From positions 1 through 56,631 of IMG/VR virus record IMGVR_UViG_3300045421_000607: 56,631 nt of DNA, one strand, 5' to 3'. The translations under genes were made by a program, and so were the position numbers. Every line of letters starts with the position of its first letter. The stretch's first letter is position 1. This DNA comes from a virus (taxonomy: Duplodnaviria; Caudoviricetes). Below, one piece after another: positions 15,231 through 54,718 of this stretch. The notes under the pieces were generated by a model, which ran no database searches, was not told where the DNA came from, and was given only the letters and a program-made list of their open reading frames with translations.

Positions 15231-15239
15231 AGTTTACAC

Positions 15240-30693: not shown

Positions 30694-30721
30694 TATTACA
30701 TAAAATTGTGTAATTAATTAT

Positions 30722-39194: not shown

Positions 39195-39404
39195 ATGCTT
39201 GATTCGCAAGAGAATCAAATAGAGATTGATGTTTTCACTCCTTACTTAAGGGCTTACGATAGAGCTCCCATACATAGAATTACAAAGAAATTTAATAGGA
39301 ATGAAAGATGTCCTTATACGGATATAAAATTCAAAAAATGTTGCGGTAAAGATGGTAAAAACTTTTGTCCAAAGCTCACAAAAGATTATATAGATAATTT
39401 ATAA
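39195..39404 (+). CDS. SEC-C motif protein
   Basis: RNERCP...KFKKCCG. Confidence 0.7.
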   Translation: MLDSQENQIEIDVFTPYLRAYDRAPIHRITKKFNRNERCPYTDIKFKKCCGKDGKNFCPKLTKDYIDNL

Positions 39405-40408
39405 TGGATTTAAAATATGCAGATGTTGTTATAGGTCTCCAATTTGGGGACGAAGGGAAAGGCAAAGTCAGTAGTTTTTTATCCAAGGACTATGATATGG
39501 TTTGTAGGTTTAATGGTGGACCAAATGCTGGGCACACGGTCTATATTGAAAATATAAAATATAAAACTCATGTTATACCTTGCGGAATTTTTTATAATAA
39601 AACCAGCATAGTTGGTCCAAATTGTGTTTTAAATTTAGACAAGTTTTATCAAGAGATTGAGTATTTAAAAAATAATGGTTTTGATATAGATTTAATTAAA
39701 GTTAGTCCATATACTCACGTGATAACTGATAAGCATATACAGTGCGATTTAGAATATTTACAAGAAAAATTTGGTACTACTGGGCAAGGTATAGCTCCGG
39801 CTTATTCCGATAAAATGATGAGGAGTGGGCTTAGAGCAGAAAGTTCAATAGATAAAAAATACATATGGGATGGTAATCTAAAAGGCAAAGTCTTATGCGA
39901 AGGAGCGCAAAGTTTTTGGCTAGACATTAATTATGGTAATTATCCTTATGTTACTAGTAGTGAAACCCTACCTTATGCAGCTTGTTCTTTGGGTTTTTCT
40001 CCTAAAAAAATTAATAAAATAATTGGTGTAGCAAAAATATATGAAACCAAAAGCGGTGTTGATCCTCTTTTCCCGGACCTTTTGCTTCAAGATTTGATTT
40101 TTAATAAGATTATAGAACTTGGCAAAGAATTTGGAACTACTACAGGCAGAAAGAGAATAGTGAATTGGATGAGGATAGATAGATTGATATATGCTATAAA
40201 CAAAAGTGGGATTAATTATTTAATCATAAACAAGTGTGATATCTTAGAACGGGTAAATCAATTTAAATTAATTTCTGATTCTTTGAAAAATCAGATCGAA
40301 GATTTTAAAAATTTAAATGATATGTGTGCTTTTATAAATACCTTTATAAGAAATAATTTAGACGAATGGGTTGATATAAAATATTCTTTTAGTCCAGAAT
40401 ATATTTAG
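39404..40408 (+). CDS. purA: Adenylosuccinate synthetase (short form)
   Basis: GLQFGDEGKGK, GGPNAGHT, GTTGQGI, EGAQ, YPYVTS, TTTGRKR, NKCD. Confidence 0.92.
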   Translation: MDLKYADVVIGLQFGDEGKGKVSSFLSKDYDMVCRFNGGPNAGHTVYIENIKYKTHVIPCGIFYNKTSIVGPNCVLNLDKFYQEIEYLKNNGFDIDLIKVSPYTHVITDKHIQCDLEYLQEKFGTTGQGIAPAYSDKMMRSGLRAESSIDKKYIWDGNLKGKVLCEGAQSFWLDINYGNYPYVTSSETLPYAACSLGFSPKKINKIIGVAKIYETKSGVDPLFPDLLLQDLIFNKIIELGKEFGTTTGRKRIVNWMRIDRLIYAINKSGINYLIINKCDILERVNQFKLISDSLKNQIEDFKNLNDMCAFINTFIRNNLDEWVDIKYSFSPEYI

Positions 40409-41175: not shown

Positions 41176-41637
41176 TTAAATAAAATAAACTTCTAAATGT
41201 GTTTTTTTGTCTACAACAGAGAAACTTTGAAACATTAAACTGGCTCGGATTGTATTGACAAATTCTGACCATGCTTCATTAGTTTTTTCAACTGTGTAAA
41301 TTTTTCCTGGGGTAGAGAATTCTGCTGATAAATTTTCTGTTTTTTTATTTTCTTCTCCAATAATAAATTCCCAATTTTGATCAATTTTTTCTTTATGGTT
41401 TAGATTTTTAGGATTGTCTATTATTTTTTTTATGAAACTTTCGTCTTCTTTAATATTTAATCTTACATTTAAGTAATTTATAACTCTATTCTTACAAGTA
41501 CAGTTAGGATTATCTTTAGCACTTATTAAGTCTATTGCTAGTTCTGGATATTTTGTTTTGATTTTATTAAAAGCGTCTTCGTCCTGAATGATTAAATCGA
41601 AGTAGCGGTCTATATAGGAGATATCATTTATTGTCAT
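41176..41637 (-). CDS. Hypothetical CxC protein, paralog of 52432-52851
   Basis: KYPE...D...NCTC..R.INYL...W...FS shared with the paralog. Confidence 0.75.
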   Translation of the reverse strand: MTINDISYIDRYFDLIIQDEDAFNKIKTKYPELAIDLISAKDNPNCTCKNRVINYLNVRLNIKEDESFIKKIIDNPKNLNHKEKIDQNWEFIIGEENKKTENLSAEFSTPGKIYTVEKTNEAWSEFVNTIRASLMFQSFSVVDKKTHLEVYFI

Positions 41638-41688
41638 TATACTATATAATATATTTTTTTTAAAAAGTTTCTATTTTTTTTTGTATTT

Positions 41689-41694
41689 GTGTAA
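41689..41694 (+). promoter_or_regulatory. GTGTAA phage promoter motif directly upstream of the group I core
   Basis: The same motif precedes at least 8 genes in the window. Confidence 0.6.
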
Positions 41695-41699
41695 ATCTT

Positions 41700-42085
41700 T
41701 TTGGCCTTATCGGGTGAATTCGGTAAAAGCCCTCAAACATAAAAAAGTTCTTTGAAATATGAGGGTAATGCCGAGCCAAGCATATATCACGGCCTAAAAG
41801 ATATATGAAGGTGTAGAGACTAATTCTTGACCTGCCGTAGGAATAAAAGAGACACGAGCGCCCGAAGTTATCTAAAGAAGATAACTAAGACATAGTCCGA
41901 TCTTAATGGTAACATTAAGTTTTAAATTTAAAAATTTAAAAATTAACTATATGAAAATGCAAACTGCAAGTTGCTCCGCATGGAAATTATCTAACTTTCA
42001 TACCGTCCCGCGAATGGCCCCATCGTATAAAAGTTAAGGTTAAAAGACCATCCACTTAACCGTGAAAACAAGTAGTAAGGCTAAA
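41700..42085 (+). ncRNA. Group I ribozyme core without a host gene, probably circularly permuted
   Basis: P3 TCGGGTG 41710-16/CGCCCGA 41859-65; P4 TTCGGT 41719-24/GCCGAG 41770-75; P5 GCCCTCA/TGAGGGT; P6a CATATATC/GATATATG; P7 GACTA 41818-22/TAGTC 41893-97 (R GTAGAGACTA, S AAGACATAGTCC); P8 AGTTATCT/AGATAACT; P9 CTTAATG-GTAA-CATTAAG. Confidence 0.9.
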
Positions 42086-42087
42086 TC

Positions 42088-43716
42088 ATGAATCTAATAA
42101 AAAATACAAGAGCAGGGTTACCTGCCGACTTAAGTTCAACAGAATTAAGAAAAATACTTTCTGTAAATGATGAAAATTTTAAACAATTTTCTAAAGATCA
42201 TCTTCTTACAGAAGAAGCGCTTTTCTATAAAACAGGATTTTTTTGTCCTAAAGGAAATTCTATATCTAAAAGATCTGATAAAGAAGACATAAAAGAATAT
42301 AGAATAAATAATTATGATGGATTTTGGAAGGAATCTGGATGGATACCTCAAAGAAATAATAAAATCTATCTTTCTAAGCCTCGAAGTCATTGTCCTAAAG
42401 ATTTATTGCCTTACAGCTCTTTGGATAAGACAGGAGTTTATATTAGTGTGAATTGGTCTGGATATCAAGACGATTACGACAATGACAAGTATTGTGTTGC
42501 AGGGATTTTGAAACAAAGTCTTGCAGAAAAGGGGAAAACAAGATCTTTTCCTTATAGGAATGTCTTTGAGATTTTTGAGCATAGCGGTTTTCAATATAAA
42601 GATATATCAAATCATAGATTTTATTTAGAGAGTGGATATAGACACGGACAACCAATAGGTTACAATAAAATATATTTTCAATCTGGTCTAAATCCTTCAG
42701 AAGTGGCAAATTATAAATGTTTCTTAGTTCCCAACAGAAGAATTACAGACTATGACAATAGATTAGGGAAAATACATAGAACTTATATTCCCAGTATGGA
42801 TTTATTAAATGAGCCTCACAATGTTGTTAGATATAATGCCTTTTTTTATACAGGTGAATTACCAATAGTATATTTAACTGGCGCTAATAATCAAGTTAAA
42901 AGAGGTTTTGGTTTTGGATCTGCGTATCAACACTCGAATTCAAAATATATATTAAATACAAATTTTAATAATTTTAGAGTTAGAGCTACAGGAATATATG
43001 GAGAAAGCATATCGAAAACTATTTCAATATTTAATACTGGGAATATCACAGAAAGATTTTATATTGGCATTAATAATCCTTCGGTCATATCAATAGATCA
43101 TTACAAAACCCCTGGAATACCAAATTATGGCGTATGGACTTACGAGAGCCAACCAAATAAAACATATGGTCAAATTATAGATAAAGTTTATAAAGTAGGT
43201 AGAGAGGCGAATATTAATTTTAATATTAAAATCAATACAGCAGCCTTACCTGCAAATAAAGTGAATACAGTATTTCTAAATATATACAGGATTACTGGTG
43301 GCAATATTCCATTCAATAATGAACAATTTCCATCAAAAACCCCAGAAAAATGGTTTGAGAATAAAGGGTGGGGACATAAAAACAAAAGAGCCCCTTTTGA
43401 ACTAAAGGAGATTATAAATACAGGTTATTTTTCACAAAAATATGTTTTGCCAATAGATATTTACGCAAGAACGAATTCGAGTAAAGTTGTTGAAGATAAT
43501 ATCTTTTATCAAAATTTAGCTAGCGGAGACTACAAACCCATTAATAGTATTGGGCAACCAATTGATATTAATCCAGAAAGCGATAATAAATACGTAGATT
43601 TAAATAAACAAATAGGATTGACTTTCTATAATATAGGAGAAAACACCAAAGATTTACGTGTAAAGCTGGATACATTAGCAAAAATCAAAATGAAGGGCCT
43701 AGAAGAAAGCATTTAA
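42088..43716 (+). CDS. Hypothetical protein, probably virion structural
   Basis: 542 aa, rich in SG/TG motifs, co-transcribed with the tail-like gene. Confidence 0.55.
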   Translation: MNLIKNTRAGLPADLSSTELRKILSVNDENFKQFSKDHLLTEEALFYKTGFFCPKGNSISKRSDKEDIKEYRINNYDGFWKESGWIPQRNNKIYLSKPRSHCPKDLLPYSSLDKTGVYISVNWSGYQDDYDNDKYCVAGILKQSLAEKGKTRSFPYRNVFEIFEHSGFQYKDISNHRFYLESGYRHGQPIGYNKIYFQSGLNPSEVANYKCFLVPNRRITDYDNRLGKIHRTYIPSMDLLNEPHNVVRYNAFFYTGELPIVYLTGANNQVKRGFGFGSAYQHSNSKYILNTNFNNFRVRATGIYGESISKTISIFNTGNITERFYIGINNPSVISIDHYKTPGIPNYGVWTYESQPNKTYGQIIDKVYKVGREANINFNIKINTAALPANKVNTVFLNIYRITGGNIPFNNEQFPSKTPEKWFENKGWGHKNKRAPFELKEIINTGYFSQKYVLPIDIYARTNSSKVVEDNIFYQNLASGDYKPINSIGQPIDINPESDNKYVDLNKQIGLTFYNIGENTKDLRVKLDTLAKIKMKGLEESI

Positions 43717-50801: not shown

Positions 50802-50867
50802 ATATATATATATTACACAAATTCTTAGGTATTTTCTACTTATTTTTTCGTGTAACTTCCAATACCT

Positions 50868-51587
50868 ATGCGTTTCACAAAAATCTTTGTTAAGAATAAT
50901 TTTGAGGATTTGAAGGAATCAACCGCTTGGGGCCCTCGACCCGGGGGGTGGGAATGCATTGGTTGCGGGTGCATTTGGGGTTGTCCAAGTCCATCGCCTA
51001 GTCCAAGTCCATCGCCAAGTCCAAGTCCATCGCCAAGTCCATCGCCTAGTCCAAGTCCATCGCCAAGTCCATCGCCAAGTCCAAGTCCAAGTCCATCGCC
51101 TAGTCCAAGTCCAAGTCCATCGCCAAGTCCAAGTCCATCGCCTAGTCCAAGTCCAAGTCCATCGCCAAGTCCTAGTCCAAGTGGTACACCTTGTGATGGA
51201 CTACCAGAACCACAGCCAGATTGGGAGTGTGATAAGGAGGAGGGAGATAAAGCTGATTGCCTTCTCGAACTCTTCGAGGCAAGTTTGGTCTGTGAAAATT
51301 TAGAAGCAAAAGCAGATGCAAACAATGCAGATCCTAATTGTCCAGACCAAGGAACCGTAGAAGATTTTCCATACGATTGTGACTATTGCGAACCTGGAGT
51401 TGCATCACCAGGATTAGACTGTAGTTACTCGATAGTTAACGGTGTGGTGGTCACGGCGAGATGGGTGTGGAAACCGCCTTATGCACCTAGGACTTTTGGG
51501 GTAGAGGAAATTCCAAATTGCGTTTGGATACCTGCTTCTGATGGAACACATGCTGGCGATTGCTGTAGCGGAACAGGAGTAGTTTAA
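50868..51587 (+). CDS. Cys-rich acidic protein with a (Pro-Ser)33 linker, copy 1
   Basis: PS run at 50985-51182; GTGTAA motif 12 nt upstream. Confidence 0.8.
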   Translation: MRFTKIFVKNNFEDLKESTAWGPRPGGWECIGCGCIWGCPSPSPSPSPSPSPSPSPSPSPSPSPSPSPSPSPSPSPSPSPSPSPSPSPSPSPSPSPSPSPSPSPSGTPCDGLPEPQPDWECDKEEGDKADCLLELFEASLVCENLEAKADANNADPNCPDQGTVEDFPYDCDYCEPGVASPGLDCSYSIVNGVVVTARWVWKPPYAPRTFGVEEIPNCVWIPASDGTHAGDCCSGTGVV

Positions 51588-51627: not shown

Positions 51628-52386
51628 ATGCGTTTCACAAAAATCTTTGTTAAGAATAATTTTGAGGATTTGAAGGAATCAACCGCTTGGGGCCCTCGAC
51701 CCGGGGGGTGGGAATGCATTGGTTGCGGGTGCATTTGGGGTTGTCCAAGTCCATCGCCTAGTCCAAGTCCATCGCCAAGTCCATCGCCAAGTCCATCGCC
51801 AAGTCCAAGTCCATCGCCAAGTCCATCGCCAAGTCCATCGCCAAGTCCATCGCCAAGTCCAAGTCCAAGTCCATCGCCTAGTCCAAGTCCAAGTCCAAGT
51901 CCATCGCCAAGTCCAAGTCCATCGCCTAGTCCAAGTCCAAGTCCATCGCCTGGTCCTGGTCCTGGTCCTGGTCCAAGTGGTACACCTTGTGATGGACTAC
52001 CAGAACCACAGCCAGATTGGGAGTGTGATAAGGAGGAGGGAGTTAAAGCTGATTGCCAGGAAGAGTACGATAAGGCAATGGCAGTCTGTCAAGAGTTACA
52101 AGCAAAAGCAGATGCAAACAGTGCAGATCCTAATTGTCCAGACCAAGGAAGTGTATCAGATCAATATCCATACGATTGTATCTATTGCGTAGATGGAACT
52201 GCATCACCAGGATTAGACTGTAGTTACTCGATAGTTAACGGTGTGGTGGTCACGGCGAGCTGGGTGTGGAAACCGCCTCATGCAACTAGGACTTTTGAGG
52301 TACAGGAAATTCCAAATTGCGTTTGGGTACCTGCTCCTGATGGAACACATGCTGGCGATTGCTGTAGCGGAACAGGAGTAGTTTAA
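51628..52386 (+). CDS. Cys-rich acidic protein with a (Pro-Ser)34(Pro-Gly)4 linker, copy 2
   Basis: PS run at 51745-51948, PG run at 51949-51972; GTGTAA motif 12 nt upstream. Confidence 0.8.
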   Translation: MRFTKIFVKNNFEDLKESTAWGPRPGGWECIGCGCIWGCPSPSPSPSPSPSPSPSPSPSPSPSPSPSPSPSPSPSPSPSPSPSPSPSPSPSPSPSPSPSPSPSPSPSPGPGPGPGPSGTPCDGLPEPQPDWECDKEEGVKADCQEEYDKAMAVCQELQAKADANSADPNCPDQGSVSDQYPYDCIYCVDGTASPGLDCSYSIVNGVVVTASWVWKPPHATRTFEVQEIPNCVWVPAPDGTHAGDCCSGTGVV

Positions 52387-54284: not shown

Positions 54285-54327
54285 ATCTAAATGATAGATA
54301 TTTTTTAAATTAAATCTAATATTAATT

Positions 54328-54718
54328 TGGACCTGCTCGGAGTTGAACCGAGGTCTTCTAATAATAGAAAAATAATATACTACAAGTTTAGTTGTTTTTG
54401 TTTTTTAGCTTTATATAGAGAAACAACAAACATATTTAGCGATTTTATTTTGAATACAAAACATTAATAGAATAAAAAAACTATTAATATAAAGACATCT
54501 AAATACGCAATATTCCAGTAGATGTGTCGTAGATATCACGCCGTAGGATTTTAGGCTACAGAAGTGGTCTCTTCTACGAGAGAAACTCTTGTAGAAAGAT
54601 GACCTTTGTATTTAGCTGTTTTGGCAGTTAATACTTTTAAGACTTTTTAAAGAGGCCCGTCTAAACCTCTACTTGCATATTAGTTTTTATCATTAAAATC
54701 GAAACCAAATTCAGGCCC
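54328..54718 (-). ncRNA. ssrA: tmRNA
   Basis: 5' GGGCCTG pairs with 3' CAGGTCC-A, including G3:U70; GGTTTCGA D-loop-like segment; T-arm CTCGG-TTCAACT-CCGAG; tag ORF 54625-54551 after TAACT; CCA not encoded. Confidence 0.93.

Follow-up and report, generated by a model that had tools for sequence, protein, structure and literature searches.

The caudoviral record IMGVR_UViG_3300045421_000607 (Duplodnaviria; Caudoviricetes; IMG/VR) was analyzed over its whole stretch of 56,631 nucleotides (nt), referred to here as the window. The window, with an estimated completeness of ~37%, carries genes for a DNA polymerase, a DnaB-like helicase, a UvsX-like recombinase, ribonucleotide reductase, and endonuclease V. 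Two divergent genes, an open reading frame (ORF) of 153 amino acids (aa) at 41176-41637 on the minus strand and a 542-aa ORF on the plus strand, are separated by a 450-nt spacer that harbors a group I ribozyme. A sequence-only reading of this DNA had placed a complete group I core in the intergenic space, and a run of the Rfam model RF00028 on the native sequence agreed with it, returning a match at 41673-41919 (+) with 74.4 bits (cut-off 50; E 4e-17) that spanned model positions 1-253 and was the sole group I match in the window. As the same reading had stated, the ribozyme of the window interrupts neither an ORF nor a transfer RNA (tRNA), and no interruption was found in the 20 copies with mapped flanks. 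With no gene interrupted, the element does not qualify as an intron. Analysis of the spacer and its relatives points, with a probability of about 60%, to a free-standing group I ribozyme that is circularly permuted in the loop of its P1 helix, and which would remove itself from the front of a messenger RNA (mRNA) and perhaps release the insert between its splice sites as a circle.

Copies and conventional relatives of the ribozyme (given below as L numbers) were gathered via pattern scans built on conserved core blocks. The family comprises at least 29 copies, and 29 copies in 27 viral contigs were analyzed; L003, L005, L009, L028, L034, L044, and L050 were left out as near-identical and L046 as truncated, and L121, the type of which is ambiguous, was kept apart from the permuted copies. 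ORF mapping covered the flanks of 20 of the 29 copies, and the first long ORF past omega-G, the terminal guanosine of the ribozyme, was located in all 29. The related contigs L002 (of which L003 is a duplicate) and L004 were reached through alignment A1 of homologues of the 542-aa protein. No relative was found with the single 542-aa protein as query against viral contigs or with A1 against genome contigs, and blastn of the spacer against the phage collection gave no match. Rfam scans of the relatives reported L007 alone (73.3 bits). The RF00028 scan missed the intact homologues L002, L004, L006, L008, L010, L011, L013, and others, all AT-rich relatives, and the misses are attributed to the speed filters. 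As clear homologues escape RF00028, group I counts made with Rfam alone would be too low in AT-rich phages of this kind.

Selection on the core was evaluated with alignment A4, consisting of 23 sequences (15 permuted copies and eight conventional relatives). When the window-derived structure was imposed on A4, 88.7% of the cells were paired as compared to 36-43% with the partners slid, and both sides varied in 43 of the 63 pairs; the observed values were reached in 0 of 500 shuffles. All five pairs of P7 and the flanking junction bases were invariant in the 23 sequences, spliceable relatives included. The spacers of L002 and L004 aligned end to end with that of the window, showing compensatory changes in P3, P5, P6, and P8, and the gene order and spacer size were the same despite only 54% identity of the flanking protein. 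In a tree of the cores, the permuted copies clustered, with three label changes needed and none of 500 shuffles as low. The conserved motif AGUUCUUUGAAA (AGUUCUUUAAAA in some copies) occupies L5 in the subfamily of the window and a hairpin 5′ of the guide in L018, L022, L073, L084, and others. The motif and the conserved P9.1 loop (A/U)UUAAAA(A) (41927-41934 in the window) show partial complementarity, and the two could possibly form a movable tertiary contact.

The 3′ end of the ribozyme could be assigned from the conventional relatives, which end in P9, a P9.1 hairpin, and a GAUAACA-type stretch terminating in G; the permuted copies share this stretch. In-silico splicing of the conventional introns L041 and L032 (GGGU↓AAA at the 5′ site, the arrow marking the cut, and after ...AACUG or ...AAUUG at the 3′ site) left 0 stops in 480 nt and placed the 3′ splice site at the terminal G of the motif. 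Judging from the translated junctions, the host gene of both introns looks like a tape-measure gene. P9.0 was formed in 41 of 46 possible pairs, with five standard pair combinations (permutation p = 0.015), and omega-G was a G in 23/23 sequences. G41953 is the predicted omega-G of the window on these grounds, the shared terminal motif, the open frames on splicing, and the covariation of P9.0 all favoring it over the other two candidates of the sequence-only reading. The GAT/ATC pairing before G42025 is present in the window, but the aligned positions of L002 and L004 have no ATCG; G41973 is without the homology support that G41953 has.

The guide at the 5′ end was found to pair with a strand just ahead of the downstream gene. 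The pairing of TTTGGCCTT (41700-08) with AAGGCTAAA (42077-85), which had been recognized earlier as a stem closing the ends of the element, is kept with compensatory changes in the relatives. Within it, G41703 stands opposite U42082, followed by AAA, and the ATG lies five bases past U42082. In group I introns, the 5′ exon is recognized through base pairing with a guide, and the position of cleavage is marked by a U.G wobble. Both the guide and a U-ending strand opposite its G are present here, with the strand downstream instead of upstream; on reading, neither the window nor groups B, C, and D showed a strand complementary to the guide on the upstream side. The distance from the guide G to GTGAATTC downstream of it was 11 nt in 25 of the 29 permuted copies and 12 nt in the other four, and L121 had no G at either distance. 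The conventional relative L055, which lacks P2, has its guide in the same place, five bases farther from P3. The conserved terminal G.U followed by AAA is a signature of a group I cleavage site and not of a clamp. In all likelihood, the closing stem represents P1, with the opening in the P1 loop; its earlier description as a clamp outside P1 and P2 does not fit the guide position, the G.U followed by AAA, and the covariation, which make it the best P1 candidate.

The main substrate strand is retained in L002 and L004, and compensatory changes in P1 were observed in L013 (GCCUU/AAGGU), L040 (GCCCU/AGGGU), L018 (GGUCC/GGACU), L172 (GCCAUUU/GGAUGGU), and L099 (GGUCA/UGGCU), in each case with AAA next and the ATG 2-11 nt later. 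Comparison of own with foreign guides at T↓AA sites of 11 lineages gave a diagonal sum of 48 consecutive pairs against a permutation mean of 34.5 (fraction 0.0013). Over the 40 nt before the ORF start of 19 gene-adjacent copies, the corresponding values were 89 and 63.7, and 0/100000 permutations were as high. When the site was located from the 5 nt after the guide G alone, 15 of the 29 copies had U opposite the G, and in 12 this U preceded AA, where about one would be expected by chance from a rough base-composition estimate. Similarly, a blind rule that took the last T↓AA before the ORF start hit a site with 4-6 guide pairs in 12 of the 19 gene-adjacent copies, at a distance of 2-11 nt upstream of the ATG.

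Other assignments around the guide were tried and rejected. GUGU↓AA as a 5′ splice site, as in L055, has no downstream guide complementing GUGU in the window family. GTGTAA as a guide is at odds with upstream flanks that differ and with the occurrence of the motif before ordinary genes. The helix ACCAAU/GUUGGU closing group B covaries in L006, L010, and L011 and is broken in L008; it was kept as a possible distal extension of P1.

The predicted 3′ splice site (G41953) thus lies upstream of the predicted 5′ splice site (U42082 or U42041), and the same order was found in the copies with a called site. The permuted layout put forward in the sequence-only reading is supported by the comparison as far as this order is concerned, while two of its parts, P1 and omega-G, had to be reassigned. 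The insert between the splice sites ranged from 37 to 247 nt in 28 copies (none for L121) and was lineage-specific, consisting mostly of hairpins. A rolling ORF on the circle was considered and dropped, as the 15 predicted circles tested had stops in all three frames, except for one frame of L004. U42041, proposed earlier as a possible cleavage site, was retained as an alternative; the strand ending in it forms seven pairs with the guide, two of them G.U, and is degenerate in L002 and L004. Its equivalent, GGGU↓AAAAGUCC, is the sole site in group B.

Transcription probably starts just after GTGTAA, so that the RNA would open with the guide (G41703-U41708) and continue through P3-P9 to omega-G, the 129-nt insert, A42077-U42082 (which corresponds to the 5′-exon end of an ordinary intron), AAA, and the ATG of the structural gene. 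The guide would fold back onto A42077-U42082 to form P1, with the G41703.U42082 wobble at its end. Guanosine or GTP bound in P7 would then attack after U42082 (or, alternatively, U42041), by which the ribozyme would be cut off and the mRNA left with an added G, a 5-nt leader (AAAUC), and the AUG. In a second and less certain step, the 3′-OH of U42082 would attack after G41953, giving a 129-nt circle (41954-42082) and a 251-nt ribozyme; use of U42041 in the first step would give a circle of 88 nt (41954-42041). Among the circle sizes suggested earlier (16, 68, or 88 nt), the last would thus hold if U42041 is used, the main prediction being 129 nt. Processing of the mRNA 5′ end, which had been offered as an alternative to permutation, would be the direct result of the first step, with the cut 5 nt before the ATG, and is not a rival to the permuted layout. 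The element would in this manner probably act as a leader that removes itself and ties the translation of a late structural gene to ribozyme folding and guanosine, the circle perhaps being a by-product. The coordinates are given in Table 1.

Table 1. Predicted elements of the ribozyme locus and its downstream gene (window positions; arrow, predicted cut).
Feature	Position	Strand	Basis or remark
GTGTAA	41689-41694	+	Read from sequence; 8 nt before guide G41703
U-run 5′ of guide G	41698-41702	+	Read from sequence; if transcribed, may extend P1 (with A42083-85) or form P10 (with A41954-57)
Guide GGCCUUA	41703-41709	+	Wobble G is G41703; one base separates guide from P3
Core	41710-41897	+	RF00028 alignment
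P3	41710-16/41859-65	+	RF00028 alignment
P4	41720-25/41769-74	+	RF00028 alignment
P5	41729-34/41761-66	+	RF00028 alignment
Conserved L5 motif AGUUCUUUGAAA	41746-41757	+	Alignments
P6	41775-76/41811-12	+	RF00028 alignment
P6a	41781-88/41800-07	+	RF00028 alignment
P7	41818-22/41893-97	+	RF00028 alignment
P7.1	41824-28/41847-51	+	RF00028 alignment
P7.2	41831-33/41839-41	+	RF00028 alignment
P8	41867-73/41879-85	+	RF00028 alignment
Ribozyme 3′ end	41899-41953	+	J7/9 with P9.0 5′ strand 41900-01; P9.0 3′ strand 41951-52
P9 with GUAA loop	41902-19	+	
P9.1	41920-41	+	
Conserved AUUAACUAUAUG	ending at 41953	+	Ends in predicted omega-G G41953
Insert between splice sites (permuted 'exon')	41954-42082	+	Predicted 129-nt circle; structured, not coding
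Alternative substrate strand UAAGGUU↓AAAA	42035-42049	+	Predicted cut after U42041; local fold with GACC 42046-49 possible
Main substrate strand UAAGGCU↓AAA	42076-42085	+	7 pairs with 41703-09; predicted cut after U42082
542-aa gene	42088-43716	+	ORF; homologues of similar length align over 98-100% of query (8/10 matches)

GTGTAA was found right upstream of the core, as had been noted before, and it stands 8 nt ahead of the guide G in groups A to D. Among copies found by core-only patterns, it was present upstream in 13 of 15, with GTGTAT in L040 and ATGTAA in L039. Over the window and 15 related loci (197 kb), 42 of the 92 GTGTAA sites preceded the first start codon of an ORF (70 aa or longer) by 3-25 nt (mostly 7-15 nt), as compared to a mean of 2% for 89 permuted hexamers. 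Out of 61 ORF starts in the window, six are preceded by GTGTAA (gaps of 8-12 nt) and seven by TATAAT (gaps of 5-11 nt), and Shine-Dalgarno-like motifs were near background (GGAG at 6/61 and AAGG at 3/61 starts). GTGTAA and TATAAT are probably −10-type promoter elements for leaderless or near-leaderless mRNAs, and the ribozyme is probably expressed like a gene, with the 5′ end of its RNA at or just before the guide sequence. The phage seems to translate from 5′-proximal start codons without Shine-Dalgarno sequences, and the near-leaderless end that the first step would create resembles the ends apparently given by its promoters. With such a mode of translation, a precursor carrying a folded leader of 390 nt would be poorly translated until self-removal of the ribozyme.

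Individual GTGTAA sites in the window were recorded at 30708, 40497, 50850, 51610, 54976, 55584, and 56155 (+) and at 15239 (−), 3-13 nt before eight starts; the gap is 8-13 nt at seven of them, the upstream sequence is T-rich, and Shine-Dalgarno sequences are absent. TATAAT occupies the equivalent position at other genes, which looks like two promoter classes for leaderless mRNAs, and the GTGTAA pattern also recurs at many sites in L002-L172. Divergent pairs of TTACAC and GTGTAA separated by 15-40 nt occur at 50813-50855 and also in L084, L087, L099, and L154.

In 29/29 copies, the distance to the start of a long downstream ORF is no more than about 300 nt. The genes following the ribozyme belong to three protein families with 9, 11, and 4 members, and the family of the 542-aa protein follows it in nine copies, at 22-54% identity. 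Maintenance of the ribozyme before one protein family down to 22% identity suggests that the pairing of ribozyme and gene is old. Searches of Pfam and PHROGs with the downstream proteins of 10 copies gave no match, and the AlphaFold model of the 542-aa protein had a mean predicted local distance difference test score of 37.6. Two permuted ribozymes are present in the contig of L172 and in IMGVR_UViG_3300017774_006457 (L084 and L096), each ribozyme of a contig being followed by a paralogue from one and the same protein family. The cores of L172 are identical over the trimmed alignment, with different guides and inserts. In L037, an intrinsic terminator directly follows the P1 site, and a new GTGTAA and a gene come after it, so that the ribozyme appears to be a transcription unit of its own. 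More tentatively, and with the odds somewhat against it, the phages of this AT-rich clade could carry a widespread family of permuted group I ribozymes, each expressed from a promoter of its own ahead of a late structural gene. With cellular guanosine or GTP, such a ribozyme would cut 2-11 nt before the start codon, convert a precursor that cannot be translated into a near-leaderless mRNA beginning with G, and release its insert as a small circle within one reaction cycle.

The long-range helix could also be structural or regulatory, clamping the ends as in GIR1 and/or hiding the mRNA start, with the chemistry elsewhere (hydrolysis at omega-G or branching) or with the RNA acting only as a folded protective or translation-blocking leader. 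In its favor, a helix located 2-11 nt ahead of the ATG must affect initiation, very few bases link the guide to P3, the placement of a ribozyme with paired ends before an ORF is the topology of GIR1, and the conserved omega-G and P9.0 are also compatible with hydrolysis at that site. A clamp, however, has no need for an invariant terminal G.U followed by AAA, which 12 of the 29 blind site calls have, nor for a guide placed where the P2-less conventional intron L055 has its own, and no GIR1 match was obtained at E≤10. Concealment of a ribosome-binding site is not an obvious purpose where Shine-Dalgarno use is rare, and L037 also has the helix, followed there by a terminator and not by a gene. 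On balance, we consider this explanation unlikely. An even lower likelihood is given to a P1 formed locally by GGUU-AAAA-GACC (U42041.G42046), with a second small hairpin as P2 and 41700-08/42077-85 tying the ends, in which case the permutation would lie between P2 and P3. The hairpin, described in the sequence-only reading, is indeed present in the window; a 3-bp version of it is recovered by RNAalifold in group A, both L002 and L004 retain GACC unchanged, group B allows a comparable GGGU-AAAA-GUCC, the second hairpin covaries (CAC/GUG vs CAUC-GCAA-GAUG), and the cleavage site U42041 coincides with the alternative site retained above. Yet it is conserved only in part, and the members with short inserts are without any such local hairpin. 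L084, L087, L096, L099, L113, L154, and L172 have no local partner after U↓AA, and only the 5′ guide can pair there. The first pair of the hairpin and the AAA are lost in L002 and L004 (3 bp are left in L002), the loop-closing pair of group C is C-G instead of U.G, and the covariation signal belongs to the 5′ guide.

The Rfam alignment (model positions 1-253) draws a P1 with a short upstream exon around 41677-41698, from which a conventional intron of the 5′ untranslated region, its leader spliced to the region before the ATG, might be proposed, and a 6-nt P10-like match (ACAAGU at 42068-73) was found by eye. The drawn P1 nevertheless has three non-standard pairs out of nine, is not conserved in L002 and L004 or among groups B, C, and D, and uses bases of GTGTAA, a signal common to ordinary gene starts; the P2 drawn along with it has no loop. 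The P10-like match lies 3 nt from any G, and about one such match is expected by chance in 450 nt (estimate). A conventional intron is very improbable on this evidence, and the same can be said of a decaying, inactive, and functionless intron remnant left in the spacer. A remnant would agree with the lack of a host gene and of a homing endonuclease ORF, but the covarying helices and the invariant P7 and core junctions across 23 sequences make it unlikely; the locus has also been kept at 54% identity of the neighboring protein, and before one family down to 22%, and omega-G is a G in 23/23 sequences.

The permutation in the P1 loop, preferred here, faces several points that weigh against it. 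Cleavage, G-addition, and circles are all inferred from sequence, and the promoter role of GTGTAA is deduced from position alone. The patterns used for sampling demanded conserved core blocks, and 14 of the 29 copies were retrieved with a pattern requiring GTGTAA, which is present in those by construction; among the matches listed for this pattern, mostly chance ones, the core was present in 15 out of 86 distinct stretches, namely 14 classed as permuted plus L121. The guide is short (4-7 bp), and the guide-P3 linker is just 1-3 nt. Competing sites pair equally well or better in L037, L039, L040, L018, L022, and L031, no convincing substrate site was found in L097, L102, and L121, and L008, on reading, breaks a helix that covaries in its sister copies. 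P9.0 is imperfect in groups B and C, with one of two pairs. P10, when read by eye, was clear in some relatives (6 bp in L013, 6 bp with a 2-nt offset in L007, 5 bp in L154, and 4 bp in L073; a weak signal) and absent or trivial in most copies, and was rejected as a consistent feature; with transcription starting at the guide G, the bases for P10 would not be made. The sequence of the insert is not conserved, which argues against a sequence-specific role of the circle. Moreover, groups B and C, L031, and L037 have a separate GTGTAA for the gene that follows; a role in mRNA maturation is thereby excluded for groups B and C and L031, and a function as translation gate would not be the whole story.

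Other features of the window and its relatives were also noted. A transfer-messenger RNA was identified at 54327-54718 (−) with RF00023 (107 bits), and ARAGORN read its tag peptide as AKTAKYKGHLSTRVSLVEETTSVA; no tRNA genes were found in the window. The 334-aa ORF at 39404-40408 (+) matched adenylosuccinate synthetase (PF00709, E 8e-81), the best stretch covering positions 1-152 of the 416 of the profile. Short phage homologues of this enzyme serve in making 2-aminoadenine DNA, which makes base modification a possibility here. The 44 bases after GTGTAA (50850 and 51610) of the genes at 50868-51587 and 51628-52386 differ at one position, and such near-identical leaders and first codons suggest a recent tandem duplication. 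L036 has core-pattern matches at 1826-1886 and 2284-2347, 460 nt apart, which are probably two adjacent conventional introns.

To our knowledge, natural group I ribozymes are almost only introns, with two exceptions, GIR1 and one case of organelle back-splicing. By sequence, the phage element shares its core and both splice-site contexts with ordinary phage group I introns. The conventional introns L041, L032, L038, and L055 from IMG/VR have the same P3-P9 core, P9/P9.1, omega-G motif, U↓AAA context, and type of guide; L055 lies within a 561-aa ORF and carries an intron ORF. These relatives interrupt ORFs and have the exon strand of P1 upstream, whereas in the window this strand is downstream of omega-G and nothing is interrupted. 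In Clostridioides difficile, a c-di-GMP-dependent group I ribozyme resides in a 5′ untranslated region and its reaction decides the translation of the downstream gene. That ribozyme is conventional, with an upstream exon and an attached riboswitch; the phage element is permuted and has no riboswitch match.

GIR1 is derived from a group I ribozyme, is located before an ORF, has pairing 5′ and 3′ strands, and makes an mRNA 5′ end by its cleavage, within a twin-ribozyme intron of eukaryotic rDNA. The earlier comparison with GIR1 was apt for topology and position, but neither GIR1 (RF01807) nor any riboswitch was matched in an Rfam scan of 41600-42200 at E≤10, which returned only RF00028 and one chance match to a long non-coding RNA. 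Unlike GIR1, the phage element has retained a P7, an omega-G, and a guide of the ordinary kind, and attack by guanosine is predicted in place of branching by a 2′-OH. Permuted intron-exon (PIE) constructs engineered from the T4 td and Anabaena introns yield circles. The phage element has the same order as these (3′ intron part, 3′ splice site, insert, and 5′ splice site), and a circle of the insert would likewise be expected. The artificial PIE constructs typically have their break in a peripheral loop, so that the two intron halves must reassemble; the phage element appears to be opened in the P1 loop with its core in one piece, its 'second half' being the downstream mRNA.

The sequence-only reading knew of no natural permuted group I intron, but one has been published. 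ND5-717 of mushroom-coral mitochondria is reported to be a natural group I intron with a permuted precursor that is back-spliced to a circular, exon-containing RNA (Chi et al., 2019; PMC6545197). It is there a giant intron of 18-19 kb in a protein gene of a circular organelle genome, with genes in P8 and exons encoding ND5 (PMC6545197), whereas the phage element is ~380 nt, free-standing, without coding exons, and permuted at P1. Bacterial permuted group II ribozymes are similarly free-standing, with reversed splice sites and no ORF interrupted, and release a short non-conserved linker as a circle of 15-86 nt; the role of these ribozymes is given as unknown (Roth et al., 2021; PMC8637638). They differ from the phage element in ribozyme class and in their branching chemistry, and they do not sit directly ahead of start codons (PMC8637638). 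No published precedent for a natural permuted group I ribozyme in bacteria or phages was found in a search that left subscription journals largely outside. If the more tentative family-wide reading given above is true, the element would be the first natural compact group I ribozyme of the PIE type and the first with the job of forming an mRNA 5′ end by G-addition. It would represent a second route of group I ribozyme domestication, recurring before start codons in many phages, and natural ribozymes permuted at P1 might serve as small scaffolds for circular RNA. It would also link ribozyme chemistry to the translation of leaderless mRNAs and provide the group I counterpart of the permuted group II ribozymes.

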